In this document: one piece after another, positions 4,823 to 31,480 of the stretch
Layout of the letters: every line of letters starts with the position of its first letter
How positions within the stretch are numbered: position 1 is the first letter of the stretch
Assembly (NCBI GenBank): GCA_016700375.1
Contig: CP065016.1
Coordinates: 1,140,001 to 1,172,000 of the forward strand
Reading direction: 5' to 3'
DNA: 32,000 nucleotides
Source of the DNA: Candidatus Saccharimonadota bacterium
Lineage (GTDB): Bacteria; Patescibacteriota; Saccharimonadia; Saccharimonadales; UBA4665
The notes under the pieces: model-generated
Database searches by the model: none
Told to the model about the DNA's origin: nothing
Seen by the model: the letters and a program-made list of their open reading frames with translations, nothing else
Made by a program: the position numbers and the translations under genes

Positions 4823-4853
4823 GTGGCTATGATAGCATGCCGCAGGTAGGGGG

Positions 4854-5858: not shown

Positions 5859-6535
5859 GCGACCTCGCTCAGTTTGTAGCCAAACCCGCGAACCGTGTGG
5901 ATAAGGGGTTTGGATTTGAACGGCTTATCAACTTTATTGCGCAGGTAACCTATGTAGGCTTCGACAGTGTTGGGCAAAATGTCTGCGTCAAAATCCCAGA
6001 CGTGATTGATGATGTTATCCTTACTCAAGACCCGTTCCTTGTTCCGCATAAGATATTCCAGTAGCGAATATTCGGTTTGCGAAAGGGCAATTGGCTTGCC
6101 TGCGCGGCGGACGTCATAACTCACGGTGTCGAGACTGAGATCACCGACCTGCAAATTTGTGCCACTTGTTTCGTGTGGGCGACGGGTAAGGGCGCGCAGG
6201 CGAGCTAGGAGCTCCTCAAATGAAAATGGCTTTACGAGGTAGTCGTCTGCACCGGCGTTGAGTCCAGCTACGCGGTCGCGGACCTGGCCTTTTGCGGTGA
6301 GCATAATGACGGGGGTTTTGACGCCCTTGCTGCGCAGTTTTTCGCATATTTCGAGCCCGTCCATACCGCCAGGGAGCATACGGTCAAGGATAATAACGTC
6401 GTAGTCGTCGCCAAGTGCGGCCGCCAAACCATCGGCACCGTCGTGACAGACCTCCACGGTTGAGTGTTCTTGCTCAAGCCCCAGTTTGATTGCGCGGGCG
6501 ATTTTGGGTTCGTCTTCTATAAGGAGTAGTTTCAT
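5855..6535 (-). CDS. OmpR/PhoB-family response regulator (receiver + winged-helix)
   Basis: Receiver signature MKLLLIEDEP...DVIILDRMLPGGMDG...LTAK. The C-terminal winged helix ends in TVRGFGYKL. Confidence 0.92.
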   Translation of the reverse strand: MKLLLIEDEPKIARAIKLGLEQEHSTVEVCHDGADGLAAALGDDYDVIILDRMLPGGMDGLEICEKLRSKGVKTPVIMLTAKGQVRDRVAGLNAGADDYLVKPFSFEELLARLRALTRRPHETSGTNLQVGDLSLDTVSYDVRRAGKPIALSQTEYSLLEYLMRNKERVLSKDNIINHVWDFDADILPNTVEAYIGYLRNKVDKPFKSKPLIHTVRGFGYKLSEVA

Positions 6536-6690: not shown

Positions 6691-6957
6691 GCGCTTATAC
6701 AACCGTCTGTGCATTCACTAAACCTCACAGCCTCACTAACCCTCTCAATTCCTGCAGGCTCCCGCACCTGCCAAGCGGCTCATTTTGTACGGACAAAATG
6801 AGAGTAAACCGCCGGGGAGAATGCAAACGACCGGCTTACTTGCCCATGACTGCTTGCTTGTTTGGCTTGTGCAGAACTCACTGCACTTTGTTTCGTTCAA
6901 ACAGCTTCCGCGCGCAAGCAACCAAGCAGCCATGGGCAAATCAGTCGTTATGCAGCT

Positions 6958-7044
6958 ACGTTCCGTAGCCTCGGAACTTCTACCATGAAAGCATAGCTTC
7001 CAGGTGAAGATTCCCTTGCGACCCGCCACAGGCGGCTCTCACCC
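6958..7044. ncRNA. Conserved structured block, copy A (unknown RNA or DNA element; strand unresolved)
   Basis: About 87 nt align without gaps to 23295-23380, with roughly 60 identical positions by hand alignment. The block has two conserved hairpins, one with a compensatory pair change. It sits inside a ~650-nt ORF-free, hairpin-rich tract. Confidence 0.3.
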
Positions 7045-7214
7045 GGTTTCCCAAGAATCACCCCTTACTGCATCAAGAAAAGTACTCACCGTAGACCTCT
7101 CTGGCATAACCGTATCATGCGCTACTGTAAACTAGCGGCCTGAGACTGCGCCTTGAACGTTGGTTGCTGGGCGTTTGGCATTTGCTCATTGAAAATTGAC
7201 TCAAAATTGTAGAC

Positions 7215-7263
7215 TGAAAACGAAATTACAAACACCCCGGGTGAAACTACCAAGGGTGTTTGT
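7215..7263 (-). terminator. Rho-independent terminator of the 7280-7834 gene
   Basis: On the minus strand, ACAAACACCC...GGGTGTTTGT forms a 10-bp stem followed by AATTTCGTTTTC, 17 nt after the stop codon. Confidence 0.6.
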
Positions 7264-7279
7264 GGCGGATGCGGTGAAA

Positions 7280-7834
7280 TTACTGGTTGACTTTCGTGTT
7301 GGCATTTTGCGAAGAATCACCTCGTTTGTGGTCGCCACGTGGTCCACCGGGGCCTCCCGGGCCGCCGTGACCGCGCCCGCCGCCAAAGACGAGGTAGCGG
7401 TAGTCGGTCGATATGCCGTTGTCGCTAAACCACTTATCGAGAGCGGTGCGTTCAGCATCCATAGCTGCTTTTCGCTCGGCGTCGGTTTTGCTATCCATGC
7501 TGGCGCGGTTGGCCTCACGGGTTTTTTGCAGTTCGGCACGCTTGGCAGTGATGGCATCGGCTTGCGCTTGGGTAAGCTTGCCGTCTTTCACCAGAGTAGC
7601 GAGTTCAGTTTTCACTTCTGCTTCACGCTGGGCTTTCATTTCGGCGCGGTTGGCGTCAAACACTGACTGCACATCACTTTCTTTCAGGTTAAATTTCTTC
7701 GCAATGGCGCTGACGAGGCCCGACATAGGGTGGGAGCCATTGTTTTGCGTGGCGGCGCTTGCCATACCGAGTCCGGTGAGTCCGGTGACGGCCACCATAG
7801 CAGCGACGCCTGCGGTTACTAACGATTTCTTCAT
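7280..7834 (-). CDS. Secreted helical protein with an LTxxQ-like motif and a Gly/Pro-rich tail (hypothetical)
   Basis: Signal peptide MKKSLVTAGVAAMVAVTGLTGLGMASA. The body is rich in charged and Ala residues and contains GKLTQAQADAI. The C-terminus is GGGRGHGGPGGPGGPRG. AAGGAG lies 7 nt before the ATG at 7834, so I prefer that start to 7840. Confidence 0.7.
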   Translation of the reverse strand: MKKSLVTAGVAAMVAVTGLTGLGMASAATQNNGSHPMSGLVSAIAKKFNLKESDVQSVFDANRAEMKAQREAEVKTELATLVKDGKLTQAQADAITAKRAELQKTREANRASMDSKTDAERKAAMDAERTALDKWFSDNGISTDYRYLVFGGGRGHGGPGGPGGPRGDHKRGDSSQNANTKVNQ

Positions 7835-7969
7835 GGGCATTCTCCTTTACGGTTGATATGTGTTGCAACTGCCGTATGATACCCATGTTTCATGAGAGCT
7901 TCCTGAGACACTCACTGCTTGAGGTTATGGTTATGCAGTGCTACGATGAATGTAAGGAGATTCTTTGCG

Positions 7970-9394
7970 ATGGGCCAAGAAGACGCCAAAAACAAACACA
8001 TCGTTATCATTGGCGCCGGAACTACCGGCATAATGGTTGCAAATAAGCTGGTGAAGTCTGGCCACCATGTAACGGTTATTGACCCGGCTAAAACACATTA
8101 CTATCAGCCCGGCTTTCTGTTTGTCCCGTTTGGGCAGTACCAGTTGAACCAGCTGAGAAAGCCACTTGTTCGCCTGCTCCGAAAAAGGGTTAATCACCTT
8201 CGAGCCGTGGTGCAAAGCCTGCAGCCTGCCGAGAAAACACTGCAACTCGACTCGGGTGAGTGTGTTCGCTACGATGTTTTGGTTATAGCCACGGGTACAC
8301 AAACAGACCCAACCATGACGGAAGGGCTTGTGGGTGAGGGCTGGCGCAAAGACATTCACGATTACTACACTCCCGATGGTGCCGAGGCGCTACGCCAGGC
8401 TCTTCAGAAGTTTCAGGGTGGCAACCTGGTTGTGCAGATTATGGAAATGCCTATCAAATGCCCAGTCGCGCCCCTGGAGTTCACCTTCTTGGCAGATGAT
8501 TACTTCAAGCGCCGTAAGATGCGCGAGAAAGTAAAGTTAACATACGTAACGCCGCTTCCCGGGGCTTTCACCAAGCCAGTCGCCGCTGCCAAGCTTAGCC
8601 ACATGCTCTCAGACCGTAGCGTCGAAGTGGTAACAGATTTTCTTACCGAAAAGGTGGACCAAGCAGCCAAAAAAGTCGTGTGTTACGATGGCCGCGAAGT
8701 GCCGTATGACCTGCTTGTTTGCGTGCCTATGAACGTTGGTGCGAAGTTTTTGCAAGGCAATGAGCTCGTGAATGATGTGGAGTTTGTGGAAGTAAATCAC
8801 CACAGCCTACAGTCTACTAAGTACCCACATATTTTTGCTATAGGCGACGCCGCTGATGTACCAACAAGTAAGGCGGGGTCGGTCGGGCACTTCGAGGCTC
8901 ACACACTCCGGCGAAACATCGACCACTTTTTGGCTGGTCGCCCAGTGGAAGAAACATTTGATGGCCACAGTAATTGCTTTGTAGAATGTGGCGGTGGTAA
9001 GGCGCTGCTGCTTGATTTTAACTACGACACGCAGCCATACGAAGGTACCTTCCCGTTTGCAGGCATTGGCCCGATGAAGCTGCTTAACCCCAGCCGGTTG
9101 AACCACTGGGGGAAACTGGCTTTTCGCTGGATCTACTGGCACATGCTTTTGCCTGGCCGCAGGATTCCGTTTATCCCTGAACAAATGAGTTTGAAAGGGA
9201 AGAATATTCCAGCCGATACTAGAGTATCAGAGAGTTATGAGACAAGAGACATGAGTCAAGATGTACCGGCGCAATCCCAGGTGAAACCACCAGAGGAAAA
9301 TGAACCATCCCAGGTGGAACAACCACAAGTTTCTAGTGTGCCAAATGAACAACCAAATCAACTAAATCAACCGAAGGAGGGTGGTCGTGAATAA
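7970..9394 (+). CDS. Sulfide:quinone-oxidoreductase-like NAD(P)/FAD-dependent oxidoreductase with a Gln/Pro/Glu-rich C-terminal tail
   Basis: Rossmann motif HIVIIGAGTTG, Cys motifs PIKCPVAPLEF and HSNCFVECGGG, and FAIGDAADVPTSKAGS. AAGGAG lies 8 nt upstream of the ATG at 7970. The last ~60 aa are low-complexity. Confidence 0.8.
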   Translation: MGQEDAKNKHIVIIGAGTTGIMVANKLVKSGHHVTVIDPAKTHYYQPGFLFVPFGQYQLNQLRKPLVRLLRKRVNHLRAVVQSLQPAEKTLQLDSGECVRYDVLVIATGTQTDPTMTEGLVGEGWRKDIHDYYTPDGAEALRQALQKFQGGNLVVQIMEMPIKCPVAPLEFTFLADDYFKRRKMREKVKLTYVTPLPGAFTKPVAAAKLSHMLSDRSVEVVTDFLTEKVDQAAKKVVCYDGREVPYDLLVCVPMNVGAKFLQGNELVNDVEFVEVNHHSLQSTKYPHIFAIGDAADVPTSKAGSVGHFEAHTLRRNIDHFLAGRPVEETFDGHSNCFVECGGGKALLLDFNYDTQPYEGTFPFAGIGPMKLLNPSRLNHWGKLAFRWIYWHMLLPGRRIPFIPEQMSLKGKNIPADTRVSESYETRDMSQDVPAQSQVKPPEENEPSQVEQPQVSSVPNEQPNQLNQPKEGGRE

Positions 9395-9698
9395 AACCAT
9401 TGCTGGCCAAGAAGTCGATGTCGACGTAGAAGGCTACATGACGAACAAAGATGCCTGGAACGGCGAAATTGCCACGGCAATTGCTGCGGAACTGGGCATA
9501 CATGAACTTTCGCAAAAGCACTGGGATGTGCTGAACTGGCTCCGTGAACAGGTTGCGCAAGGGGTTGAACTCAACATTCGCAAAGTTGGTAGTTCCGGAA
9601 TTGTCGACATAAAGGAGTTCTACCAGCTGTTTCCCGGCGGCCCACTAAAAAATGCCAGCAAAATTGCCGGATTACATAAACCAACAAGCTGTCTGTAG
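9387..9698 (+). CDS. TusE/DsrC-family sulfur-relay protein (single C-terminal Cys type)
   Basis: VDVEGYM...WDVLNWLRE...LFPGGPLKNASKIAGLHKPTSCL parallels the E. coli TusE architecture and its ...AGLPKP..C. end. The likely GTG start at 9387 follows GAAGGAGG and overlaps the upstream stop (GTGAATAA). The ORF-track start is 9381. Confidence 0.85.
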   Translation: MNKTIAGQEVDVDVEGYMTNKDAWNGEIATAIAAELGIHELSQKHWDVLNWLREQVAQGVELNIRKVGSSGIVDIKEFYQLFPGGPLKNASKIAGLHKPTSCL

Positions 9699-9706
9699 GA
9701 GGCACT

Positions 9707-10279
9707 ATGTCAGAACAACACCCGCACAAAACTGAACACACTGGCCACGAAATGTGTCATGTCTGCAACCAATGCAAAGACTGTCATGCCTGCCGCTGCG
9801 AAACGCAGCAGGGCCCAGCACTGAAAAAAATGATGATTATTGTGAGCAAGGCAGGTATAGACAGCGTGTACGCCGCGCTCATCCTGGCGAACGGCGCTCG
9901 CAGCGAAGGCATAGAGTGCGACATGTTCTTTACGTTCTTTGGCCTCGACGCCATCACCAAAAAACGCATGGAGCACTTAAAGGTTGCTATGAGTGGTAAC
10001 CCAGGTATGCATATGCCGGAAATTGCCGGGGTCGTACCTGGCATGGAGACCTTTGCAACACACATGATGCAAAAGCGCATGGCCGAGCTTGATATACCGG
10101 GCGTAAGCGAATTCCTCGACATTATCAAGGCGGCTGGCGGGCACGTGTATGCCTGCAAGCTTGCCATGGAAATGTTTAAACTAGAACAAAGCGACCTGTG
10201 GGATGACACGGACGGCGTGCTTACCGTCGGCCAGTTTTACGAACGCTATGTGCCAGGTAGCCAAATCATCTTTATCTAG
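9707..10279 (+). CDS. DsrE/DsrF-like (DrsE_2-type) protein with a Cys/His-rich N-terminal extension
   Basis: Core MMIIVSKAGIDSVYAALILANGA...CDMFFTFFGLD...YACKLAMEMF is typical of DsrE-family proteins. The N-terminal 36 aa are HPHKTEHTGHEMCHVCNQCKDCHACRC. AGGAGG lies 5 nt upstream. Confidence 0.8.
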   Translation: MSEQHPHKTEHTGHEMCHVCNQCKDCHACRCETQQGPALKKMMIIVSKAGIDSVYAALILANGARSEGIECDMFFTFFGLDAITKKRMEHLKVAMSGNPGMHMPEIAGVVPGMETFATHMMQKRMAELDIPGVSEFLDIIKAAGGHVYACKLAMEMFKLEQSDLWDDTDGVLTVGQFYERYVPGSQIIFI

Positions 10280-10664
10280 CACGAATTTCGCACCAGCCAG
10301 CCTCCCGCCCAGCGAAGTTGGCCGCACCGCTGGCTTCTCCCCACCCCAATGAATCGTTCCGATACCTTGGGAGCCCCGGTTCGACTCCTGCACATTTTTC
10401 CTCTCCGGTACATCGGCTTCGCCTCTTTTCTCACTGCTCGGAAAGAAAAAGTAAACTTCTTTCTTTCCTGCGCGACTGCGACACCACTCGCCGTAGTACA
10501 GTACGGCTCCTGGAGCCTGTCCTGAACTTGATTCAGGATGCTTCAAGGAGAAAATGCACATGAACTCAAAGTGCGAAACGCGTGTCTAGCGCGATTTAGT
10601 TCCAGTTCGTGTTTGGGTTCTCTACTAGCTTGACCCGCTGCTAAAATACTCTACAGTGTATGGT

Positions 10665-10907
10665 ATGAAACATGTGGTGAGGCGCTTGTTTATTTTTGGT
10701 TACGCGCTTGCGTGCGTCATTGCATCTTGTGCACCCGCCTCGGCACAACAAGTAACTTTTTCACAGCAAATCAAGCCGCTCGTCTGCACGGTAGACATAG
10801 TGGTAGCTGGCGCAACCATGACCTTCAATCTGTATCCCGACGAGTGCAAGCACTCGGCAGCTGCTCGGCAACTACTTGCTGACACAAAAGCAAGTCGCTA
10901 CGAATAA
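10665..10907 (+). CDS. Small secreted hypothetical protein
   Basis: An ~80-aa ORF with a signal-peptide-like N-terminus (MKHVVRRLFIFGYALACVIASCAPASA) and three further Cys residues. I recognise no homology. The 3' end overlaps prs convergently by 10 nt. Confidence 0.4.
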   Translation: MKHVVRRLFIFGYALACVIASCAPASAQQVTFSQQIKPLVCTVDIVVAGATMTFNLYPDECKHSAAARQLLADTKASRYE

Positions 10908-11917
10908 TTACGGCCGTCAAAAAGGTCAGACACGGAGCCGCCGGTGGCTATTTCGTGCAGGGCTGTTGCTATCATGGGGGCAACTGGTATGACGGTGAGT
11001 TTATCGCCAAGAACCTTTTTGGCGTAATCGATGGGTACTGTATCGGTTACGATTAATTTGTCTATAGCACCACCTTCAAGACGCTCTATTGCTGGGTCGG
11101 AGAGCAGGGCGTGTGTTGCACTCGCAATAACCGCAGTCGCGCCAGACTTACGGAGCGTCTCGGCGGCCGTTACAAGTGTGCCAGCAGTATCTATCATGTC
11201 GTCTGTCATGAAGCATATACGGCCCTCGACGCCCTGAAGCTTCTTGGGGCGAATAAGTTTGCTACTGTCGTGCCGGTCACGGGTCTTTTGCAGGTGACGC
11301 AAGCGAACACCCAGGATATCAGCAGCCCGCTCGGCATCTTTGGCTCGACCGGTGTCTGGCGAAACAATGGCAAAAAGTTCTGGGTCGCGGTCGCCCATCT
11401 CAGTTTTTAGCCCATCTAAAATGAGTCGTTCGGCTATGAGGTGGTCAAACGGTCCATGAAATGTTCCCTGTACCTGCGACGAGTGCATGTCTATAGTGAC
11501 CAAGCGGTGCGCACCAGCCATCTCAAGCATGCGCGTGACCACGGCAGCCGAAATTGGTTCGCGCCCTTTTGCTTTTCGGTCCTGTCGGCTGTAGCCAAGG
11601 TATGGTATGACGACTGTTATTTCGCGGGCAGATGAACGGCGTGCTGCATCTATGAGCAGCATAGTTTCCATAAGCGCGTCATTCACCGAAAGGTGCCGTT
11701 TATAATCATGCGCAAATGTTTGAATAATAATGACGTGCTTGCCGCGTACCGACTGCTCGTACTGGACATACAGTTCACTGTTTGCAAAGCGCTTCCGGTT
11801 GACCGGACCAAGCTCTAGCCCCATGTGTTTAACACTTTCCTCAGCAAGCTTTGGGTGAACCGTACCAGTTACTATATATAAATCATCTGGGTTGATAGTA
11901 ACCTTGGTTCCGTTCAT
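10898..11917 (-). CDS. prs: Ribose-phosphate pyrophosphokinase
   Basis: 339 aa with YSRQDRK, TIDMHSSQVQGTF and the PRPP-binding loop MTDDMIDTAGT. Confidence 0.93.
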   Translation of the reverse strand: MNGTKVTINPDDLYIVTGTVHPKLAEESVKHMGLELGPVNRKRFANSELYVQYEQSVRGKHVIIIQTFAHDYKRHLSVNDALMETMLLIDAARRSSAREITVVIPYLGYSRQDRKAKGREPISAAVVTRMLEMAGAHRLVTIDMHSSQVQGTFHGPFDHLIAERLILDGLKTEMGDRDPELFAIVSPDTGRAKDAERAADILGVRLRHLQKTRDRHDSSKLIRPKKLQGVEGRICFMTDDMIDTAGTLVTAAETLRKSGATAVIASATHALLSDPAIERLEGGAIDKLIVTDTVPIDYAKKVLGDKLTVIPVAPMIATALHEIATGGSVSDLFDGRNYS

Positions 11918-11984
11918 AGTGAGCTAAGCCTCTCTTTAAACCTATTTCTTCCAGAGTATAGCGAAAACATGCAGAATGCAATGA

Positions 11985-12746
11985 TTATGGACGGAGCGTG
12001 CCACCAAAGACCTGCCACGCCAAGAGCGATTTGGCCACAAGGCTCAAAATGATGTAGGCGCGTTCGCCGTAGAGGTAATCGCGCCATTTACCAACCTGCT
12101 TGTACTGCAGCACCATATTCAGCGCAAAGCAGCTGAAAAATACGAAAATAGAGACAGATATCCAGTACACAAACGTTGGGGCGGCACTCCCATTGGCTGC
12201 TCCGAGCCACATATAAAATGCCACGACTACCCAAGGGATGAGGCCAGCGAAGGTACCAAGGTTGAAGCTGAGCCAATTAGTCTTTTTGGTGGTTTGGTTG
12301 TGCACTTCCATGACGAGCCCGAGCAGGTTCATGACGGCGGTCAGGCTAAACATCATCAGCAGTGAACTGAAATCGTAGATACCCACTAACATGCCAATGG
12401 CGACCATCATGGTGCTGGCCGAAATGGCGTATTCGACCCAGCGTAGTTTGTTTATGCCGAGTTTGAGGTCGGCAGCATAGCGCCTGTTGTACACAGTGGC
12501 GATAGTAAAGTGGAAAAAGGCCGAGAGGAAAAAGAAGGCAGCAATCAGCCAGGGCAGGTCAACGTTAAAAAGCGTCGTTGTTGTCGGTTGGAGTGACTGG
12601 GTTGCTTTGTCGAACTCGAGGTAGTTACCGCTAACGGGCACAGGCAATGACTTGCTGAGTAAGAGGACCGCCACGGCTTGCGCCAGATGCAAGCAGCCGG
12701 CGATGATATTGAGTTTCTTGAGTGACCGCGCGGTTATTTTCTTCAT
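11985..12746 (-). CDS. Heliorhodopsin
   Basis: 253 aa, 7 TM. It has IAGCLHLAQ, FFHFTI, RWVEYAISAS (counterion Glu) and ERAYIILSLVAKSLLAWQVFGGTL (retinal Lys). It is collinear with heliorhodopsin 48C12 as I recall that sequence. Confidence 0.88.
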   Translation of the reverse strand: MKKITARSLKKLNIIAGCLHLAQAVAVLLLSKSLPVPVSGNYLEFDKATQSLQPTTTTLFNVDLPWLIAAFFFLSAFFHFTIATVYNRRYAADLKLGINKLRWVEYAISASTMMVAIGMLVGIYDFSSLLMMFSLTAVMNLLGLVMEVHNQTTKKTNWLSFNLGTFAGLIPWVVVAFYMWLGAANGSAAPTFVYWISVSIFVFFSCFALNMVLQYKQVGKWRDYLYGERAYIILSLVAKSLLAWQVFGGTLRP

Positions 12747-12864
12747 AGAATAAATGTAGCATATAACGCTATAAAATCATGCGCCGCACCCGGAATACCC
12801 TTGTGGCAAGTAGCTCAAGAGAACGCTGCGCGGGAACAACCCCATTTTTCCCAACAAGAATTAG

Positions 12865-13167
12865 CTAAAAAACATCTTCGATGTAAATAGTAAATTTACA
12901 CCTATCTCCGGTCGATATTTTAGCCCTTTTTCGTACATCTTGCTTTATGGGAAGTAGGTAAGAACCTGTTTTTCTGTCTGGGAATATCGATGTAAACCAT
13001 TCGGTATCGTTTACTGCTGCCCGTACTCGTATTGAGCCGAAACCCCTTTTCGGTGATGTACTTGTAACCAGCTTTATGTCCTGGGCAATCTTTGCGGGAA
13101 GGGTGGCAAAAACCCATGCTCCTTCTCCTGGGTAAAGCCATAGTTCAGAACTGAACGCAAATTGCAT
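12865..13167 (-). CDS. DUF1905 domain protein
   Basis: 100 aa. AWVFATLP...FGSIRVRAAVNDTEWFTSIFP...YLLPIK matches the DUF1905 pattern. An extended -10 (TGATATCAT) lies 6 nt before the ATG. Confidence 0.8.
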   Translation of the reverse strand: MQFAFSSELWLYPGEGAWVFATLPAKIAQDIKLVTSTSPKRGFGSIRVRAAVNDTEWFTSIFPDRKTGSYLLPIKQDVRKRAKISTGDRCKFTIYIEDVF

Positions 13168-14356: not shown

Positions 14357-15007
14357 ATGAAAATAGGTGTATTTGACTCGGGCATTGGCGGGTTGAGCGT
14401 CGCACAAGCAATAGAGCGGGCTTTGCCTGAACACTCCGTTGTATTTCGCCATGACTCTCCAGAGCACTTTCCGTATGCTACAAAATCGCCAGATGAACTT
14501 TTTGGGTACGTTGTGCCCGTGGTACACTCGCTCGTAGACGATGGGTGCCAGGTAGTTGTTATAGCATGCAACACAGTAACGACAACCCTTATCTCAAGAT
14601 TACGCGAACATTTCAGCGTGCCGCTTGTCGCTGTTGAGCCGATGATTAAGCCCGCCGCCAAAATGACAAAGACTGGCGTCATTGCTGTTTGTGCAACGCC
14701 GACAACACTTGCCAGCCCTCGGTACAGCAAACTAAAACAGCTGCATGCCCAAGGCCTTACTGTACTCGAACCGGATTGTAGTGATTGGTCCGTGCTTATC
14801 GAACACGACGCCATGAACCGAGCACGCTTAGAGGAAGTGATTGAGCCCGTTTTGCGTGCGGGTGCCGACGTCCTTGTTCTTGGGTGTACGCATTATCATT
14901 GGATACAGGACGAAATTCAGGCGCTATGTCGCGACCGAGCTCAAGTTATGCAACCAGAAGAAGCTATTGTTGCCGAGCTTAGACGAGTGATTGCAGAACT
15001 TGCTTGA
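14357..15007 (+). CDS. murI: Glutamate racemase
   Basis: MKIGVFDSGIGGLSV, VIACNTVT and LGCTHYHW (the two catalytic Cys motifs). The ORF-track N-terminal extension (from 14171) overlaps folD and is rejected. Confidence 0.9.
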   Translation: MKIGVFDSGIGGLSVAQAIERALPEHSVVFRHDSPEHFPYATKSPDELFGYVVPVVHSLVDDGCQVVVIACNTVTTTLISRLREHFSVPLVAVEPMIKPAAKMTKTGVIAVCATPTTLASPRYSKLKQLHAQGLTVLEPDCSDWSVLIEHDAMNRARLEEVIEPVLRAGADVLVLGCTHYHWIQDEIQALCRDRAQVMQPEEAIVAELRRVIAELA

Positions 15008-16301
15008 ACTGATTTCCTCTATCTTTGTAATTTTCAAACATACCAAAACTTGCACAACCTGTGGAGAGTAGAACCACATCTCCTGGTTCTGCGGAGGAGC
15101 GAGCATTTGTAATGATTGCGGTCATGCTTTCGCCACCAGGTATAAAGTCGCGAAACCCAACGCGTTCAAGCGCCGCCTGGATGCGTCCGGCCTGGTCGCC
15201 TATAAGAAGCGCTTTACGAACATCGTTTGATGCAACAGCGCGTGCAAGTTCGTCGTAGGGAGCGCCCTTATCCGACCCGCCTAGGATAACTACTTTTGGC
15301 TGTGCAAAGGCCTCTATGGCGACAATGGCAGTCTCGGGCGTTGTACCGAAACTGTCATCGTAGTATTTGACACCTTCTATTTCACGCACAAATTCGAGAC
15401 GATGCTCAAGCCCTGAAAAAGTAGTCAATACACCGCGGATGGCGGTTTTTACGGTGTTGATTTCACCTGGGATTGTTGGCTGGAGGGCCTGCCAGACGGC
15501 AGTGGTAGCCGCGCAGGCATTTTGCCAGTTGTGTTTGCCCAGGAGTTTGAGCTCGCTGGTTGTACAAATTTCCGCCCCACTAATAGTAATTGTGCCGTTC
15601 TCTACAAATGCACCTGGCGTTTGAAAATATGGGATTTTTTGCCCATGGCTCTGGGAGGCTATCTCTGTAGATATTTCATTCCCCGCAAAATAAATTGCGA
15701 CATCGTCGCGATTTTGCTGCAGGAAAAGCCTTCTTTTTGCAGCCGTATAGTCGGCCATATCTGCGTGCCAGTTCAGATGCTCGGGCACAACCATAAGGCA
15801 TACCGCGATATGTGGTGAGTGCCGGACGTCGCAGAGCTGAAAACTACTGAGTTCCAGTACAACCCAGTCGTCTGGCTTAATTTCGTTTACAAACTCAAGC
15901 GGGGAACGGCCAATGTTGCCGCCCAACCAGACTGTTTTTTCGGCTGCTTCTAACATTTTTGCGGTCAGGGTTGAGGTTGTGCCTTTGCCTTTGGTACCGG
16001 TTATGCCTATGACGTTTTTGGTCGGGCACGCTCGCAGAAACTCATCCACAGCCGTCGTAATCTTGCTTTCTAAGTTCGGGTTCGCAGCCAGCAATATTGA
16101 CGGGTGTATTCCTGCGCTGCGCACAACTACATCAAACCGGTCTAAGTTTGCAAGATAGCCATCACCAAGCTGTGGCTCGTATGCTTCGGGAACCACAACC
16201 GCTGTGTTTTGGTCGCACACGGTCACGCTGTGCCCTTGCGCCGCAAAATACGCAGCGCTTACTACACCCTCTGTCGCAAAACCAACAATCGCAATCTTCA
16301 T
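14979..16301 (-). CDS. murD: UDP-N-acetylmuramoylalanine--D-glutamate ligase
   Basis: 440 aa. Mur-ligase P-loop ITGTKGKGTT, plus GLEHRLEFV and DDSFGTTPE. The 3' end overlaps murI convergently by 29 nt. Confidence 0.92.
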   Translation of the reverse strand: MKIAIVGFATEGVVSAAYFAAQGHSVTVCDQNTAVVVPEAYEPQLGDGYLANLDRFDVVVRSAGIHPSILLAANPNLESKITTAVDEFLRACPTKNVIGITGTKGKGTTSTLTAKMLEAAEKTVWLGGNIGRSPLEFVNEIKPDDWVVLELSSFQLCDVRHSPHIAVCLMVVPEHLNWHADMADYTAAKRRLFLQQNRDDVAIYFAGNEISTEIASQSHGQKIPYFQTPGAFVENGTITISGAEICTTSELKLLGKHNWQNACAATTAVWQALQPTIPGEINTVKTAIRGVLTTFSGLEHRLEFVREIEGVKYYDDSFGTTPETAIVAIEAFAQPKVVILGGSDKGAPYDELARAVASNDVRKALLIGDQAGRIQAALERVGFRDFIPGGESMTAIITNARSSAEPGDVVLLSTGCASFGMFENYKDRGNQFKQVLQSLV

Positions 16302-16327: not shown

Positions 16328-16414
16328 CGTGAAAGCTCCGACCTTTCACGCTTATGCTTGCATGACTGTATCTGTTTGGCTTATATTCATGCGTGAAAGG
16401 TCGGAGCTTTCACG
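16328..16414. repeat. REP pair (two 23-bp hairpin repeats in opposite orientation) upstream of the RAYT gene
   Basis: cgtgaaagctccgacctttcacg (16328-16350) and its reverse complement cgtgaaaggtcggagctttcacg (16392-16414). Confidence 0.85.
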
Positions 16415-16416
16415 CT

Positions 16417-17055
16417 ATGGCAAGTCGAAATACGGTTCGGGAATTTACAGAAAACGCCTACTACCATGTGTACAACAGGGGTGTTGAGAAGCGGGTAATT
16501 TTCCTTGACGAGCAAGACTACACCGTGTTTCTTGGCCTCCTCAAAAAATATCTGGTAGGCGAAAACTACAATAAAGCAAATCGGCACAAAGCCGTGACCA
16601 TTGGCTCTGAAGTTCAGTTGCTGGCATATTGCTTGATGCCAAATCATTTTCACCTGTTGTTATATCAGGTTAGCCAGGAGGGTGTCGCGAAGCTCATGCG
16701 TCGGGTGACAACTGGCTACGTTATGTATTTCAATAGTCGTTATGCTCGCGTAGGCGGCCTGTTTCAGGGGCGATACAAAGCATCACACATCAATGCAGGC
16801 GCATACCTGCACCATATATCCCGTTATATCCACCTCAATCCGGAGCAGCACCAGACGTGGCCTTATTCGAGCCTCAAGTACTATCAGCGTACACAAGCAC
16901 CACCAGAGTGGCTTCATACCGAAAAGATCATTGACTTATTCCATTCGCGTCGCGAATACCTGGATTTTGTAGACGAGTACCAAGACTCAATGCGAGAACT
17001 TTCTTTGCTCAAATGGCAGCTGGCCAATAACCCAGATGATCCTGACACCCCATGA
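16417..17055 (+). CDS. REP-associated tyrosine transposase (RAYT, IS200/Y1-transposase-like)
   Basis: HUH motif LMPNHFHLLL, a downstream Tyr region (ISRYIHLNP), and flanking by REP pairs. I prefer ATG 16417 because the ORF-track GTG start lies inside a REP. Confidence 0.85.
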   Translation: MASRNTVREFTENAYYHVYNRGVEKRVIFLDEQDYTVFLGLLKKYLVGENYNKANRHKAVTIGSEVQLLAYCLMPNHFHLLLYQVSQEGVAKLMRRVTTGYVMYFNSRYARVGGLFQGRYKASHINAGAYLHHISRYIHLNPEQHQTWPYSSLKYYQRTQAPPEWLHTEKIIDLFHSRREYLDFVDEYQDSMRELSLLKWQLANNPDDPDTP

Positions 17056-17072
17056 AACTACCTCGGTAGCGC

Positions 17073-17138
17073 CGTGAAAGCTCCGACCTTTCACGCTCGA
17101 ACCGCGAACCATAACCGTGAAAGGTCGGAGCTTTCACG
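17073..17138. repeat. REP pair downstream of the RAYT gene
   Basis: The same 23-mer occurs at 17073-17095 (forward) and 17116-17138 (reverse complement). Confidence 0.85.
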
Positions 17139-17157
17139 GTTATTGGAGAGGTGGAGG

Positions 17158-17529
17158 TTAGGCGGCGAGTTCGGTTTTTACCATTTCGGCAACCTGTCGG
17201 GGGGTCATTTCTGCCTTGACAATGTAGCGACGGATGCCGAGTTCCTTTAGGTCTGGGGGTGCTTGCTCCTCACCTGAGTTTGTGAGGATGACAACCTTAA
17301 TGTCTTTACCCCAACTGGTTTTGCGGAGTTTTTTGAGCATTTCGCCGCCGTTCATTTCCGGCATCATGAGGTCTAAGAGGATGATGTTCGGTTTCATCGA
17401 TTCAGCCAGCTCCAGCCCAAGTTTGCCATTGGCAGCAGTCTCTACTATAAAGCCCTCTGCCTCAAACTTTATGCGGTACATGGTACTTATGGCTTGATCG
17501 TCTTCTACAATAGCTACTTTTTTGCTCAT
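17158..17529 (-). CDS. Receiver-only (CheY-like) response regulator
   Basis: 123 aa. VAIVEDD...IILLDLMMPEMNG...LTNS...KA, with no output domain. TATAAT lies 7 nt before the ATG. Confidence 0.9.
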   Translation of the reverse strand: MSKKVAIVEDDQAISTMYRIKFEAEGFIVETAANGKLGLELAESMKPNIILLDLMMPEMNGGEMLKKLRKTSWGKDIKVVILTNSGEEQAPPDLKELGIRRYIVKAEMTPRQVAEMVKTELAA

Positions 17530-17570
17530 ACTTTGTATTATACAATACGGCCAAAATTATTGCCGAACGA

Positions 17571-18737
17571 CCTGACCCACACTCACTTTTTTCCTCCTCC
17601 CCGTACATGAGCCACCGGTATCGGTGGTAGCAGCGGCGTACGTAGTAGCCGTTGCATATACTCCCAGGCTTGCTTGAACCAGCTCAGTCGTTTCTTGGGA
17701 TGAATCTTCTGCTGTTGTTTTGGTAGTACTTTGACCGCATAGCGCCACAGTAACCACCAACCGAGGAAGACAAACAGCAGCAAGTTACGGATGACTTGTG
17801 GTTTTCTGACTCGTTGCCACTCCAATCGTTGCAACCACTTCACATCCTTGAAGGCTTCTTCAATTTCGAACCTTTCTGCGTAACGGTTCAGGACTTGTCT
17901 TCTGGTGAGGGCCTCTGTTCCCTCGCTCGGTAGGTTGGTCAACAAAAACCAGGGCTCCGGATCCTTCATGTTCGGATTGTAATCCGAACGAATAAGTCGG
18001 AGCTTATGTGTATGGTACGTGATGGGTAATTCCTCATGACTAATGTCATGGATGGGTTCCTTCCACCAGCTGGGATCCCAGGGAAGCTGAACGAGCTTGT
18101 CGCTCTTGGTACGAGCGATGAAGTGCACATCGTACAGGGCAAACAAAGTGAACAGTTTGTCACTAGCAAACCAGCGATCCATGACAAGTACCAGTTGCAG
18201 ATCTGGTGCATTAACTTGAAGGAAATGGAACAGTCCCTCCAGCGCCACTAGAAGTGGCGCAATGAGAGCTGCTTCGCTGAGGTTCACCTGACACCAAATG
18301 GGTATAGCTCGACCCTTGCGATGCGACACCGCCAAGATGGCGATACAAAACGGGCCGAATTGAGAGTGGTCCAGAGAGCAGTACCACCGACCAGTATGCG
18401 AAGCTAACGCTTCGCTAACCAACAATCGCTGCAAGCGCACTGGCAGTTCCTCGTCAGTAACTAACCGACGAATGCGGTTTTCTCCAGTCCAGCGATTCAG
18501 CCCAAGCGTTCGACCAGCAGCGTTGAGCGAACAGAACTCCTGAAGGGAAAACTGTTCAACTCCGAGGAAGAAGCGACGAGCCTTAGCTTTTGGGATGTAT
18601 GTCGCACGCAGCCGCTTTACAGCAGTTGCCATCTTTTGTAGTGTAGTCATTAGAAAACGACCTTTCTGTTTTAGCTTTTGTAACCAAAACTGTAGGGTCG
18701 TTTTTGTTATGTGTCAAAAAAGTGAGTGTGGGTCAGG
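17571..18737 (-). mobile_element. Intact IS4-family insertion sequence (1167 bp)
   Basis: 22-bp terminal inverted repeats: CCTGACCCACACTCACTTTTTT at 17571-17592 and its complement at 18716-18737. Flanked by direct CCGAACGA (17563-17570 and 18738-18745). Single DDE ORF. Confidence 0.85.
17583..18650 (-). CDS. IS4-family DDE transposase
   Basis: 355 aa. YAERFEIEEAFKDVK fits the IS4 Y-(2)-R-(3)-E-(6)-K signature exactly. Upstream Asp candidates are LDHS and VMDRWF. Confidence 0.88.
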   Translation of the reverse strand: MTTLQKMATAVKRLRATYIPKAKARRFFLGVEQFSLQEFCSLNAAGRTLGLNRWTGENRIRRLVTDEELPVRLQRLLVSEALASHTGRWYCSLDHSQFGPFCIAILAVSHRKGRAIPIWCQVNLSEAALIAPLLVALEGLFHFLQVNAPDLQLVLVMDRWFASDKLFTLFALYDVHFIARTKSDKLVQLPWDPSWWKEPIHDISHEELPITYHTHKLRLIRSDYNPNMKDPEPWFLLTNLPSEGTEALTRRQVLNRYAERFEIEEAFKDVKWLQRLEWQRVRKPQVIRNLLLFVFLGWWLLWRYAVKVLPKQQQKIHPKKRLSWFKQAWEYMQRLLRTPLLPPIPVAHVRGGGKK

Positions 18738-18926: not shown

Positions 18927-19313
18927 CTAAGTGTGCTTTGGGAGGCGCAGAACTTCTCGGACAACGTCCACTACCTGTGAAGGTGTATAGTGAGCTTTTA
19001 CGATGTAGCGATCGACGTGTAAAAAGCGCAGAGAAGAGGGTGCTTCGTCCCGACTCAAGTTCGTCAGGATGATCACTCGCATGGAGGCTCCCCAATCTTG
19101 AGCGCGTACCTTCGCCAGCAGCTCCTCGCCCTGCATGCCGGGCATACGGAGATCTAGCAAAACTACATCTGGCTGTTCATTTTTGAGCAACCTGTACCCA
19201 GCCGCTCCATCGCCAGCGGTCAAAACAGTAAAACCCTCAAGCCGAAATTTTGTCTCGTACAGTCGCCGAATCGCAACCTCGTCCTCAACAACCGCAATCT
19301 TTACAGATGCCAT
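18927..19313 (-). CDS. Receiver-only (CheY-like) response regulator
   Basis: MASVKIAVVEDE...VVLLDLRMPGMQG...LTNL...KA; a paralog of 17158-17529. I prefer the ATG at 19313. Confidence 0.88.
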   Translation of the reverse strand: MASVKIAVVEDEVAIRRLYETKFRLEGFTVLTAGDGAAGYRLLKNEQPDVVLLDLRMPGMQGEELLAKVRAQDWGASMRVIILTNLSRDEAPSSLRFLHVDRYIVKAHYTPSQVVDVVREVLRLPKHT

Positions 19314-19346
19314 ATGATGTAATACTAACATAACTCTTACCCGGCA

Positions 19347-20877: not shown

Positions 20878-20958
20878 CCATTGAACATAAAAGCTGCGCG
20901 TCAGATATAATCATTCTTTTTGTGGTACACTAGTTGTGATGTTCTTTGCGTAACAATA

Positions 20959-23269: not shown

Positions 23270-23294
23270 TTCTTACGGATGCAGGCTCTCGCTC

Positions 23295-27294: not shown

Positions 27295-29409
27295 ATGAAA
27301 TGGTTTTCTAAACTATTCAGTACCCTCCCAAAGCGTCTTGCAACTGCAACTGCGATAGCACTTGCAGTACTGATACCGGCTACTACTATGGCAGCCGATG
27401 TCAGCATAGAAGGCACTATGGGTGTGGCCAACAAGACTGCTGGCGATACAACGTACAGCAAATCAATAAATGCAAAGTACAACGACGTTGTGAAGGTAGA
27501 AGTCTACTACCACAACCGCGAACTGCCAGATAGTGGCAAAATAGCCCAAAACCTTCGTGTGAAGATCAACATCCCAAGCACGCCAGGTACGGCTCAAACC
27601 CAAACCGCAACCATAAGTGGTGATAATACCAATACGGTAACGGCTACGACTTCAGTAACCCTCGACCGTGCCGATGCCTACCTGCAGTATTTACCAGGGA
27701 GCGCTGTGTGGCGCCACAATACTGGTACTAACGATGCTCCAAACTGGGTCGATACTGTCATTTCTGACGGTGTCGTAACCAGTGGAACCGGTGTAGTATT
27801 GGAAAATGAAAAGCCCTGCTATAACTTTTCGGCTACGGTCACGGTGCTTGCACGCGTGATGGTGCCTGGAGTGAGCGTTGATAAGTATGTACGTGCCAAG
27901 GGTTCAACTGAGTGGGTACGTAGCATGGCTGGTCAGCCCGGTCAGACAGTACAGTACCAGATAGCCTACAAAAACACGGGCAACACTACTCAGTCAGATG
28001 TAGCCTTCCGTGACCAACTACCGGCTGGTGTTACCTACGTGCCTGGTTCAGCCAAACTAAAGAACACTAACTTCCCGAACGGAACTGCCATAAGCGACAG
28101 TATTGTTGCGAGTAATGGGGTTATCGTCGGTACCTACCTACCTGGCGGGGCAGGCTACGTGATGTTTGAAGCAGTACTGCCTACAGTTGACAAACTTGCT
28201 TGTGGTAGCAATCTGCTACGGAACCTAGCCTTTGTACAGCCAAAAGGCATGAACTACTACTACAACACGGCTGACGTGACAGTAAACAAGACCTGCACAA
28301 CGCCAACACCGGTTTACTCCTGCGACGACCTCACGGTCACCAAGGGTGATAACCGTACCGTTACGGCAACAGTGAAATACACCGCCAAAGACGGTGCAAC
28401 ATACAAGAACACCACCCTCGTTTGGGGTGACAGTAAGCAAGATGTCATTACTGGTACAACTGGCACGCATACCTATGCTGCCGACGGTACGTACACAGTG
28501 AAGGCGAACATGCTCTTCAGCGTAAACGGTGTCGATAAAGCTCCAGCTGTAAATGCAGCTTGTAGTAAAACAGTTACCTTTAGTACGACTTCCAAGACGC
28601 CAAGTGTCAAGATTGAGAAGATGGTTGAAAAATCTGTTGTGAATGTGAACGAAGAGTTCAAGTACACAGTCAGGGTTACCAACGATGGCGAGGTTGACCT
28701 TACCAACGTTAAGGTCCATGACACCCCTGCAGATGCTTCAAACATCAAGCTTGTCAGCGCAAACGGCGTCGGTAGCATTAGTGGTAACACATGGAGCTAC
28801 ACAATCCCAAGTCTGAAGGTCGGTGAAAGTAAGAGCTTTACGCTAACCGCAAAGGTTACAGCTTACACCGAAGGAAATCTGGTTAATACGGCGTGCGTGA
28901 ATGCGCCAGAGGTTAACCCAGAGAACCCAGCCAAGGACGACGACTGTTCAAGCGTCCCTGTTACGGTCAAAAAGCCAGTAACACCTGTATACAGCTGTGA
29001 CGCGCTAACCCTGACCGCTGGCGCAAACCGCACCCTGACGGCCAAAGTTGACTACACCGGCAAAGACGGTGCCAAGCTGAAGATGGTCACATACAACTGG
29101 GGTGATGGTGCTACGCCACTTGTTACCGATAAAACAACTGCAACGCATACCTATGGTAGTGACGGCACATTTAGCGTGAGCCTCAAGCTCCTCTTCAGTG
29201 TCAACGGTACTGACAAGTATGCTGCAGAAAACCAGAGCTGTGTGAAATCAGTGACCTTTACAACTCCAACTCCTCCAACGCAAAAGCCAGATAGCCCGCA
29301 GGTTCTTCCTGACACGGGTGCAGGTAGTGTGATTGGGCTGTTCGGACTCGTAAGTGTCCTGAGCGCTCTAGCGTATCGGTTGTTCCTGAGCCGTAAGCCT
29401 GCTCGCTAA
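27295..29409 (+). CDS. LPxTG-anchored surface protein with DUF11-like and PKD-like repeat domains
   Basis: Signal peptide ...ATTMA/AD. DUF11-like modules (YQIAYKNTGNT..., YTVRVTNDGEVDLTNV...YTIPSL). Two Cys-bracketed PKD-like repeats (WGD...THTY..DGTY.V). C-terminal LPDTG + hydrophobic helix + RKPAR. Confidence 0.88.
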   Translation: MKWFSKLFSTLPKRLATATAIALAVLIPATTMAADVSIEGTMGVANKTAGDTTYSKSINAKYNDVVKVEVYYHNRELPDSGKIAQNLRVKINIPSTPGTAQTQTATISGDNTNTVTATTSVTLDRADAYLQYLPGSAVWRHNTGTNDAPNWVDTVISDGVVTSGTGVVLENEKPCYNFSATVTVLARVMVPGVSVDKYVRAKGSTEWVRSMAGQPGQTVQYQIAYKNTGNTTQSDVAFRDQLPAGVTYVPGSAKLKNTNFPNGTAISDSIVASNGVIVGTYLPGGAGYVMFEAVLPTVDKLACGSNLLRNLAFVQPKGMNYYYNTADVTVNKTCTTPTPVYSCDDLTVTKGDNRTVTATVKYTAKDGATYKNTTLVWGDSKQDVITGTTGTHTYAADGTYTVKANMLFSVNGVDKAPAVNAACSKTVTFSTTSKTPSVKIEKMVEKSVVNVNEEFKYTVRVTNDGEVDLTNVKVHDTPADASNIKLVSANGVGSISGNTWSYTIPSLKVGESKSFTLTAKVTAYTEGNLVNTACVNAPEVNPENPAKDDDCSSVPVTVKKPVTPVYSCDALTLTAGANRTLTAKVDYTGKDGAKLKMVTYNWGDGATPLVTDKTTATHTYGSDGTFSVSLKLLFSVNGTDKYAAENQSCVKSVTFTTPTPPTQKPDSPQVLPDTGAGSVIGLFGLVSVLSALAYRLFLSRKPAR

Positions 29410-29632: not shown

Positions 29633-31480
29633 ATGCGTATCTCGCTACCGCGTATCAAGAGGCAAAAAAAGTTAATAGTAGTTGCACTAGGACTTCTATT
29701 TGTTGCAGTAGGTGCTGGAAACAACATACCAAAAGTCTTCGCTGCAGATTGTGACGCCAATGCCATCATATACTGCGGGTTTACTTCTAATCAAAGTTTT
29801 ATTGACAAAGTGAACCTTAACAACAGCGGCAATGGATTTAATGATCTGCAGACAATCTATGCACATTTCGGCCTCACATCCAGTGCATATGGCACATTTG
29901 TCTCTAATGCGAAAGACGGTACGATGTACCGCGATGGGCGCGTTGTGGTAGGTAGCGACACTATCATGACTGGCGGGCAAAGTCTTGGGCGCCAAAGCAC
30001 TGCCGGTAGCTACGCTTATGCGATTAGCGGTAAAAATTATTATGCTGGTGCACCCTCGGTACGCTGGGCGTCCGGTGTCAACACAATTGGCGTTAAAGTA
30101 CTTTTCGATAGCAATGGTACTCCACTATTTACGGTTATGCCTACTTGTGGTAATCCAGTCTGGGGCAGCAAGGTTGTTTCTGGCGCTACTTGCGGAATGC
30201 TTAATAAATCGCCTGTATCTGGAAAGGTAAACACATACAATTTTACGGCAACCGCTAATGTCAGCGGCCTCGCTAAGATAACAAAGTATGTGTATGACTT
30301 TGGTGATGGAACGCCGATGGTGACCACTACTAGCCCAACACAGATAGTTCCGCATGAATATACAAAGGTCGGCACGTTTACGGCAAAACTTACCGTCTAC
30401 GCATCTGCCCCAGGCGGAACAACCATCACAGCGACAGCAAAAACGTGCGAACAGGTCATTCCGGTTGCCCCACCGCCGGCTCCGAAAGTTACCATCACCA
30501 AGACAGTAAACAAAACAGAGACACTCAAGACAGATACAGGCAAGAATTTTACCTATGAGCTCAATGTTAAAAATACCGGTAATGTTGTTCTAAATAGTGT
30601 TCTAGTTACTGACGAAGCACCAAATGGAGTCAAATTTATCAGTACGAGCCTTGGAACTATTGCGAACAATAAATTGACCTATACCATTCCGAGCCTTGCT
30701 CTCAACCAAACAGTAACTATTACGATCACTGCGAAAGCTGTCATATATACGCCTACGTCCATCGTGAACAAGGCCTGTGTTGATGCACCGAGTACCCCTA
30801 GTACACCTGACGCCTGTGATACAGCATCTGTTACGGTGAATCCTCCACTCTGCGCAAAGCTCGATGGCCCTAGCCCGAACGGTCTAGCCTATACCTTTAT
30901 TGCCACGGGCAGCTTTGGAGAAGGAGTTTCACTAGTGAGCGGAGACTTTGACTTTGGCGACGGCAAGACCCAAAATGGTGTCGCGGCAGCTGGCTCAACC
31001 GTGACTGCTACGCATACCTATGCAGCATCTGGAACCTATAGTGCCGTTGCAACACTTCGTTTTACGTCTGATGGTAAGATGTACACTGCACCTGGCTGCC
31101 GAGCGTCTGTGAAGCCAGAGGCTCCACCAGCCCCCGAATGCAAACCCGGCATCCCCGTTGGCGACATCCGCTGTAACCCTTGTGAGTATGACGCAAGCAT
31201 TCCCAAAGATGACCCTCGCTGTGTTGCCCCTGTTGCAACCCTCCCGAACACGGGTGCCGGTAACATCATTGCCCTTGCTTCAGCGGCACTGGTTGGCGGA
31301 TTCCTCTGGTATAGACACATCCTGTTCCGCAGACACAAACGAGCCTATTTAGCGGCTGACTTTGGTACCTCACCATTACCCCTCGCAGAACCACTCGAAT
31401 CACCAGATCCACTCGCCGCAACGCCACTTGCACCCCAACCCCGTGGACGGTTTAGTATGCGCCGACGGCGTCAGTACTAG
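29633..31480 (+). CDS. LPxTG-type surface protein with PKD-like and DUF11-like domains and an extended post-anchor tail
   Basis: Signal peptide ...KVFA/AD. FGDGT...HEYTKVGTFTAKL and FGDGK...HTYAASGTYSAV (PKD-like). YELNVKNTGNVVLNSV...YTIPSL (DUF11-like). LPNTG + TM + RRHKR, then a further 45 aa. Confidence 0.85.
   Translation: MRISLPRIKRQKKLIVVALGLLFVAVGAGNNIPKVFAADCDANAIIYCGFTSNQSFIDKVNLNNSGNGFNDLQTIYAHFGLTSSAYGTFVSNAKDGTMYRDGRVVVGSDTIMTGGQSLGRQSTAGSYAYAISGKNYYAGAPSVRWASGVNTIGVKVLFDSNGTPLFTVMPTCGNPVWGSKVVSGATCGMLNKSPVSGKVNTYNFTATANVSGLAKITKYVYDFGDGTPMVTTTSPTQIVPHEYTKVGTFTAKLTVYASAPGGTTITATAKTCEQVIPVAPPPAPKVTITKTVNKTETLKTDTGKNFTYELNVKNTGNVVLNSVLVTDEAPNGVKFISTSLGTIANNKLTYTIPSLALNQTVTITITAKAVIYTPTSIVNKACVDAPSTPSTPDACDTASVTVNPPLCAKLDGPSPNGLAYTFIATGSFGEGVSLVSGDFDFGDGKTQNGVAAAGSTVTATHTYAASGTYSAVATLRFTSDGKMYTAPGCRASVKPEAPPAPECKPGIPVGDIRCNPCEYDASIPKDDPRCVAPVATLPNTGAGNIIALASAALVGGFLWYRHILFRRHKRAYLAADFGTSPLPLAEPLESPDPLAATPLAPQPRGRFSMRRRRQY

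Follow-up and report, generated by a model that had tools for sequence, protein, structure and literature searches.

Among the heliorhodopsins (HeRs) described so far, those closest to the gene considered here are TaHeR of the Thermoplasmatales archaeon SG8-52-1 (structures 6is6, 7u55 and 7clj), the founding member of the family, 48C12 (6su3, 6uh3 and 9ljj), and a group of regulatory HeRs that adjoin the genes of published partner classes, such as OcHeR with the OmrDE ABC transporter and the HeRs linked to glutamine synthetase or photolyase (PMC11109279). In Saccharimonadia, 80 HeRs have been catalogued, SLVAK being one of the most frequent motifs around the lysine (Chiriac et al. 2022, PMC9166423), and the Saccharibacteria also include strains with type-1 rhodopsins, the SacRs, which are outward proton pumps carrying a DTS motif. 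Rhodopsin-bearing Saccharibacteria lack blh, a supply of retinal from their Actinobacteria hosts has been proposed, and HeR in organisms without a retinal pathway takes up retinal rapidly via a small opening, as does TaHeR (Jaffe et al. 2022, PMC9296517). The gene under study resides on a 32-kb stretch of contig CP065016.1 (positions 1,140,001 to 1,172,000; the whole of this stretch is called the window below). It is a genuine, intact heliorhodopsin gene, and its product probably functions, loaded with scavenged retinal, as a non-pumping sensor that acts on a partner protein.

11985..12746 (-): heliorhodopsin coding sequence, 253 aa with an ATG start, from family hidden Markov models (HMMs), structure matches and alignments

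An earlier note, made from the DNA letters, had placed a 253-aa heliorhodopsin at exactly these coordinates, with which the family models, the TaHeR match and the predicted fold all agree. In the search with the Pfam heliorhodopsin model that it had recommended, the open reading frame (ORF) matches PF18761 over the full profile (1-242/242) with E=3.2e-96 and 321.8 bits against a cutoff of 26.7, and in NCBIfam it reaches 330.6 bits with the equivalog model NF038020, 'heliorhodopsin HeR' (cutoff 100). There is no Pfam match to the type-1 family PF01036 (Bac_rhodopsin) at E<=0.01, and the motif in transmembrane helix (TM) 7 reads SLVAK, not DxxxK. The best match among solved structures is TaHeR 6is6 (E=8e-77, 50-51% identity, full length), followed by 48C12 (6su3/6uh3/9ljj, E~1e-54). 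By exact-sequence look-up no identical protein is on record, the nearest ones being 96-98% identical (P0001, L005). With Nei-Gojobori estimates of dN/dS of 0.085 in comparison with L083, 0.051 with L003 and 0.037 with L001, i.e. 0.04-0.09, the gene is evidently under strong purifying selection; synonymous sites are saturated between the window and L001 (pS 0.73).

All motifs expected from the earlier note are present in the translation, namely GCLHLAQ (17-23), FFHF (77-80), RWVEY (102-106) and ERAYIILSLVAKSLLAWQ (228-245). In an alignment with TaHeR, 48C12 and 15 database relatives (18 sequences) as well as in one with 52 relatives (53 sequences), H20, H79, E105, S235 and K239 occupy invariant columns, which correspond to H23, H80, E107, S237 and K241 of 48C12 and to H23, H82, E108, S234 and K238 of TaHeR (the chain index of 6is6 being the native TaHeR numbering plus 6). 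The codons, assigned by alignment to 48C12, are as follows:

12689-12687 (-): H20, the TM1 histidine (48C12 H23)
12512-12510 (-): H79, the TM2 histidine (48C12 H80)
12434-12432 (-): E105, the counterion in TM3, within RWVEY (48C12 E107)
12044-12042 (-): S235 of the SxxxK motif in TM7 (48C12 S237)
12032-12030 (-): K239, the retinal Schiff-base lysine in TM7, within SLVAK (48C12 K241)

Both histidine contexts, the counterion glutamate and the retinal lysine that had been named in advance are thus found in homologous and invariant columns with respect to TaHeR and 48C12, including the TM7 lysine and the TM3 glutamate on which the assignment had been made to depend, and the collinearity with 48C12 holds at 42-44% identity with all five residues kept. 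TaHeR has the same His/His/Glu/Ser/Lys set, but it comes from an archaeal and not from a bacterial host of the candidate phyla radiation (CPR), it has N204 in place of Ser205 and C168 in place of Thr165, and in the TM5-TM6 region four additional residues set the two proteins apart. 48C12 is farther away than TaHeR and differs in the sequences of the first extracellular loop (ECL1) and of the TM4-TM5 loop. The catalogued Saccharimonadia/CPR HeRs share both the host class and the SLVAK motif (PMC9166423). SacRs come from the same host phylum, likewise without blh and with reliance on host retinal and fast uptake; however, they are type-1 pumps, whereas the protein studied here has SxxxK, a predicted inverted topology and no PF01036 match (PMC9296517).

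The AlphaFold2 (AF2) model built on the 53-sequence alignment (pLDDT 74.6, pTM 0.73) shows seven helices (6-30, 64-83, 100-121, 126-152, 158-183, 191-215 and 224-250) and, between TM1 and TM2 in ECL1, a long beta-hairpin made of strands 35-46 and 51-63. Compared by Foldseek, it superimposes on 6is6 with a TM-score of 0.89 and an rmsd of 2.2 A and on 48C12 with a TM-score of about 0.85; the range for HeRs is 0.84-0.89, in contrast to 0.54-0.68 at 9-15% identity for type-1 rhodopsins. Lys and Arg number 16 on the face made up of the N-terminal end and the loops TM2-3, TM4-5 and TM6-7 versus 3 on the opposite face, which by the positive-inside count fits an inverted topology with the N-terminus predicted to be cytoplasmic. 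The basic residues include R88, R89, K95, K100 and R102 in the first intracellular loop (ICL1) and K216, K220, R222 and R229 in ICL3, so that the basic ICL1 and ICL3 of the regulatory HeRs (PMC11109279) are kept here as well.

According to a 2025 preprint (10.1101/2025.11.27.691015), a lateral fenestration exposing the beta-ionone ring of retinal is marked by an aromatic pair at 48C12 positions 162 and 206, small residues at 166 and 210, and Gly169. At the sequence level, all of these residues have their counterpart in the window protein (aromatic F161 and F204, small T165 and A208, G168), and TaHeR is alike at these sites (Y/F, C/T, G, F, A). The sole departure is Ser205 for the usual Asn (Asn207 in 48C12), with Ser being found in 41/53 relatives. 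The same source puts forward the hypothesis that such a fenestration serves above all to take up, as a second antenna, a xanthophyll from the host or the environment, which would make the protein a two-chromophore light harvester besides or instead of a plain sensor. The complete set of carotenoid-site residues and the Ser205 that is smaller than the Asn of characterised HeRs would speak for this role, which does not exclude sensing. However, the argument rests there on structure, sequence statistics and docking, with experimental carotenoid binding to a HeR not shown in the part accessible; moreover, the window has no carotenoid-related feature, and a non-pumping HeR has no defined use for harvested energy. 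The antenna role appears doubtful for this protein. Far less probable still is that it transports ions as a proton channel or pump, as do some giant-virus heliorhodopsins: while viral HeRs have been demonstrated to transport protons (work cited in PMC11109279 and in PMC12873467), the nearest relative here is TaHeR (50-51% identity) and not the viral subfamily, and the fenestration motif, which the transporting viral subfamily reportedly lacks, is present.

With respect to the chromophore, no Blh, carotenoid oxygenase (CCD) or Crt family was found by Pfam among all ORFs of at least 90 aa in the 32-kb window, and when rescanned with Pfam at a lenient threshold (E<=1) and with NCBIfam, the unannotated ORFs at 19510-20877, 25590-26855, 7280-7840, 6745-7029, 10656-10907 and 7196-7666 gave nothing chromophore-related either, in line with the claim that no blh/crt-type gene lies in the window. 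A match of Lycopene_cycl to a sulfide quinone reductase (SQR)-like flavoprotein was rejected as sub-threshold and of the Rossmann type (E=0.002, 17.7 bits versus 23.4). This local lack is the published norm for the HeR family and for the host group, as blh is rare among HeR neighbours and genome-wide co-occurrence of HeR and blh is mostly seen where another rhodopsin is present (Chazan et al., 10.1101/2021.02.16.431466). Therefore, the novelty implied by the earlier note is not borne out: missing chromophore genes are the rule, HeRs of Saccharimonadia are catalogued, and a retinal supply from the host has already been proposed.

The host is a Candidatus Saccharimonadales bacterium and thus belongs to the TM7/CPR lineage, whose members combine small genomes with an envelope of the monoderm type. 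Its nearest counterparts among named proteins are annotated as 'heliorhodopsin HeR [Candidatus Saccharibacteria bacterium]' and are 85% and 83% identical; they are encoded on contigs of 1.23 and 1.21 Mb (CP064992.1 and CP064993.1). The closest locus, L005 from a Saccharimonadales metagenome-assembled genome (MAG), has a 98% identical HeR and synteny over 10 kb. Scanning species-representative genomes with the HeR yielded 80 loci, most of which belong to Saccharibacteria, Saccharimonadales and further Patescibacteria and a few to Thermoplasmata and Dehalococcoidales; in all, 60 or more loci from Saccharibacteria/Patescibacteria were recovered. A surface protein encoded in the window bears on the envelope:

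27295..29409 (+): surface protein whose C-terminus is a canonical sortase signal, with LPDTG followed by a hydrophobic stretch and RKPAR

A second motif, LPNTG, lies 78 residues ahead of the C-terminus in the product of 29633..31480, and sortase genes adjoin HeR in related Patescibacteria loci. The LPDTG substrate together with these sortases supports a predicted monoderm-type envelope of the host, and the suggestion that the LPxTG proteins agree with a monoderm bacterium can be upheld with one canonical LPDTG signal, one LPNTG motif and the Saccharimonadales lineage.

Several observations on the relatives may be added. Two HeRs that are 52-69% identical to that of the window bear diderm labels, P0092 'Thiobacillus sp.' on 10.9 kb and L082 'uncultured Gammaproteobacteria bacterium' on 13.9 kb; given the restriction of the family to monoderms, both are probably misbinned CPR contigs. 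In L001 (CP064992.1), where the 85% identical HeR is intact, prs, an aminotransferase and a histidine kinase are each split into at least two called genes (gene calls at 10830-11416, 4185-5314 and 14950-15760), which could be due to assembly indels or to real pseudogenes. The titles of the L003 and L005 MAGs, MAG_MBR_AS.10 (membrane-bioreactor or activated-sludge?) and MFD10491 (a large environmental survey), do not name sunlit lake water. In this respect the relatives of the window HeR, with titles pointing to activated-sludge or soil-type MAGs, differ from the HeRs catalogued from freshwater lakes (PMC9166423), and HeR is strongly conserved by purifying selection despite this apparent non-lake origin.

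By analogy with TaHeR, 48C12 and OcHeR, a retinal-loaded sensor would work as follows. Transcribed from what may be its own extended -10 promoter, the apoprotein would insert with the N-terminus inside and would bind all-trans-retinal, which the cell itself would not synthesise and would obtain from its host or surroundings, the retinal entering through the lateral fenestration lined by F161, T165, G168, F204 and A208 and becoming linked to K239 as a protonated Schiff base, for which E105 would be the counterion. Green light would then isomerise the retinal, and a slow photocycle with a long-lived photointermediate would alter the basic cytoplasmic loops ICL1 and ICL3, which in turn would modulate a partner protein through direct contact and not by ion pumping. 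In regulatory HeRs, partner binding needs the basic ICLs (PMC11109279). The chromophore site, the HeR fold, the charge bias that favours an inside N-terminus, purifying selection, the host clade and the lack of local chromophore genes are established for this locus by the data above. Since no conserved partner gene of HeR was found in this lineage among the 87 HeR loci compared, the regulatory step is proposed by analogy, and this negative finding weighs against the sensor reading together with four further points: TM4-TM6 are modelled with no more than moderate AF2 confidence (pLDDT 53-70); several record titles of close relatives hint at activated-sludge or soil-type samples in which light is perhaps limited; retinal auxotrophy at the level of the genome is drawn from the literature on other Saccharibacteria, the present data covering 32 kb out of roughly 1.2 Mb of genome; and a search of the literature found no experimental study of this HeR or of any other CPR HeR.

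The candidates for a partner were sought by a comparison of the neighbourhoods of the 87 loci, comprising 1.16 Mb of flanking sequence. As the earlier note had described, HeR sits between prs and a DUF1905 gene, both of which were located by Pfam:

10898..11917 (-): prs, ribose-phosphate diphosphokinase (Pfam/NCBIfam), directly downstream of HeR and 67 bp after its stop
12865..13167 (-): DUF1905 gene (PF08922, E=5e-24), upstream of HeR
11918..11984 (-): HeR-prs spacer of 67 bp, containing TTGCAT-15 nt-TATACT as a promoter-like pair and GAGAGG as a Shine-Dalgarno-like site
12753..12761 (-): extended -10-like element TGcTACATT from the alignment of upstream regions, 6 nt ahead of the start codon of HeR

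The first of these neighbours could suggest a functional pairing of HeR with prs, in which light-activated HeR would bind and modulate the phosphoribosyl pyrophosphate (PRPP) synthetase and thereby couple the supply of nucleotide precursors to light, in parallel to the HeR-glutamine synthetase and HeR-photolyase pairs. The two genes lie on the same strand, 67 bp apart and with no terminator-like hairpin in between, the adjacency is kept in L001, L002, L003, L005 and L083-85 while the other flanks differ, and there are known cases of HeRs regulating soluble enzymes whose genes lie alongside (PMC11109279). However, prs is directly downstream only of HeR orthologs that are at least 83% identical, and the adjacency is gone at 81% (L086/87) and at 78% (L004) HeR identity as well as in the remaining ~75 loci. 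A minus-strand consensus scan of the spacer returned neither a terminator nor a promoter match, but 58 of its 67 positions are identical between the window and L001 despite the saturated synonymous sites in HeR, and because of this conservation together with the TTGCAT...TATACT pair and the GAGAGG site, prs is suggested to have a promoter of its own. In addition, prs is outside the ten published classes of HeR neighbours, which are glutamine and NAD+ synthetases, photolyase, MerR, TerC, ABC transporter, SDR, alpha/beta hydrolase, DUF2177 and DUF2238 (PMC11109279), and the term 'phosphoribosyl' is mentioned neither there nor in the second neighbourhood paper (PMC8612252). A functional HeR-prs pair is accordingly improbable, and prs was discarded as a conserved partner. 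The same holds for DUF1905, which is likewise missing from the published classes, gave no tblastn match (E<=10) in the first 82 HeR loci, and is found upstream of HeR solely in the window and in the 96% identical L083. In the nearest genomes, the interval between folD and HeR has only a tRNA-Lys in common. Both neighbours represent shallow, lineage-specific synteny as judged from the sequence comparison, and, unlike the regulatory HeRs, the window HeR is flanked by none of the ten published classes in the Pfam annotation.

In turn, the upstream regions of the window, L083-85, L001, L002, L003 and L086/87, when aligned, have TGnTACA(C/T)T in common, which is kept 6 nt before the HeR ATG across the clade (TGGTAGACT in L001) whatever the upstream gene, although a two-hexamer promoter scan did not detect it. 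This suggests an autonomous HeR promoter giving rise to a putative leaderless or near-leaderless mRNA in the Saccharimonadales clade. Searched with Rfam for regulatory RNAs close to HeR, the window yielded only three tRNAs.

A different neighbour emerged from the unbiased clustering of 1257 neighbouring ORFs, in which an OmpR-type response regulator (RR) and a small histidine kinase (HK) were the most frequent close neighbours of HeR. In the window, this two-component system (TCS) is encoded on the strand of HeR, 5.4-6.1 kb downstream of it, and in three other loci from Saccharibacteria/Patescibacteria the kinase gene is directly upstream of HeR:

5855-6535 (-): OmpR-family response regulator (Pfam/NCBIfam)
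4854-5858 (-): small histidine kinase with two transmembrane helices (Pfam/NCBIfam)
L019, 7748-10327 (one strand): RR-HK-HeR triplet
L041, 4643-7176 (one strand): RR-HK-HeR triplet
L069, 8343-10762 (one strand): RR-HK-HeR triplet

The kinase, of 325-340 aa, has neither a PAS nor a HAMP domain; its two transmembrane helices flank a loop of ~40 residues, and its N-terminus, FHSATLRLTAWY, is conserved. With its sensor region as a probe, orthologous kinases were found 2-6 kb downstream of HeR in the clade of the window and, in the same-strand RR-HK-HeR order with a gap of 58-130 bp between HK and HeR, in L019, L041 and L069. As the HeRs of these three loci are only ~55% identical to one another, the arrangements do not stem from one recent lineage. 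In all, the system recurs next to HeR in four lineages. HisKA genes near HeRs have also been published for several phyla including Patescibacteria (Bulzu et al., PMC8612252).

These findings raise the alternative that the nearby OmpR-type TCS receives its light input from HeR, with the kinase reading a conformational change in HeR via membrane contacts as in SRII-HtrII, for which a small two-helix kinase without PAS, HAMP or a large sensor domain would be suited. The directly adjacent orthologous kinase at three divergent HeRs, the downstream kinase throughout the clade of the window and the published HisKA neighbours are in favour of such a link. However, in the reciprocal test none of nine metagenomic loci (L088-L096) with a full-length RR-HK ortholog (RR 59-68% identical; several with 10-kb flanks) carries HeR, from which it follows that the linkage is occasional and not obligate. 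Furthermore, most of the 87 HeR loci have no RR-HK pair, 5 kb with an inserted sulfur-gene cluster separate the pair from HeR in the window, and the best NCBIfam matches of the pair, all of them below cutoff, are heavy-metal or phosphate-type systems. HeR as the light input of this system is accordingly unlikely, although less so than the HeR-prs pair, and a functional link between HeR and the TCS is given a similarly low chance, as is the specific proposal that a saccharibacterial HeR with host-derived retinal feeds a dedicated minimal TCS made up of the FHSATLRLTAWY-type two-helix kinase and the OmpR-type regulator.

Two other genes recur near HeR in related loci. The methionine sulfoxide reductase MsrA (PF01625, E=1.7e-55 in Pfam) lies 170-950 bp upstream of HeR in six loci, one of them archaeal:

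L034, L035, L036, L050 and L065 (Saccharibacteria) and L077 (Thermoplasmatales): MsrA next to HeR

This position fits the published link of HeR to the mitigation of oxidative stress. A TRAM/uracil-5 RNA methyltransferase is encoded near HeR in seven Patescibacteria loci, in some of them only 10-13 bp downstream (Pfam). Neither MsrA nor this methyltransferase nor a sortase is encoded in the window.

The remaining features of the window are the following:

7919-10279 (+): three-gene sulfur cluster with an SQR-like flavoprotein, a TusE/DsrC-family protein and a DsrE2-like protein
16393-18650 and 24469-25443: three transposase/integrase genes (IS200-like Y1, DDE_Tnp_1, rve), 4-12 kb from HeR
23128-24468: stretch of 1.3 kb next to transposase genes, with no ORF of more than 88 aa and no Rfam match
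17158-17529 and 18927-19331: two stand-alone receiver proteins, clustered with transposase genes
20920-23127: histidine kinase with a 7TM receptor (HisKA_7TM)

The flavoprotein of the sulfur cluster passes NF049943, 'type III sulfide quinone reductase, selenoprotein subtype', with 552.9 bits (cutoff 525). CPR bacteria are generally not known to have a respiratory chain, and an SQR is unusual in such a bacterium. Since the cluster is found between prs and the RR/HK genes only in the window, in L005 and in L083, with fragments in L001, and is absent from L002 and L003, it looks like a recent insertion by this comparison.

Taken as a whole, the heliorhodopsin of the window is correctly recognised but ordinary, being a further HeR in a host group in which the family is already catalogued. 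That Saccharimonadia commonly have HeRs is already known, genomes with HeR are documented to lack a retinal pathway as a rule, and the value of the locus extends little beyond the right annotation, which the NCBI equivalog model would assign automatically. It adds the negative result that neither prs nor DUF1905 is a conserved HeR partner, and as a modest lead the small TCS that recurs by HeR in some Saccharibacteria. Should the link to this system be true, it would provide a concrete HeR-to-kinase signalling pair, and the supply of the chromophore by the host would gate the light response of the symbiont. The window HeR or one of its close relatives is a reasonable candidate for tests of the scavenging of retinal, and possibly of carotenoids, in an episymbiont.

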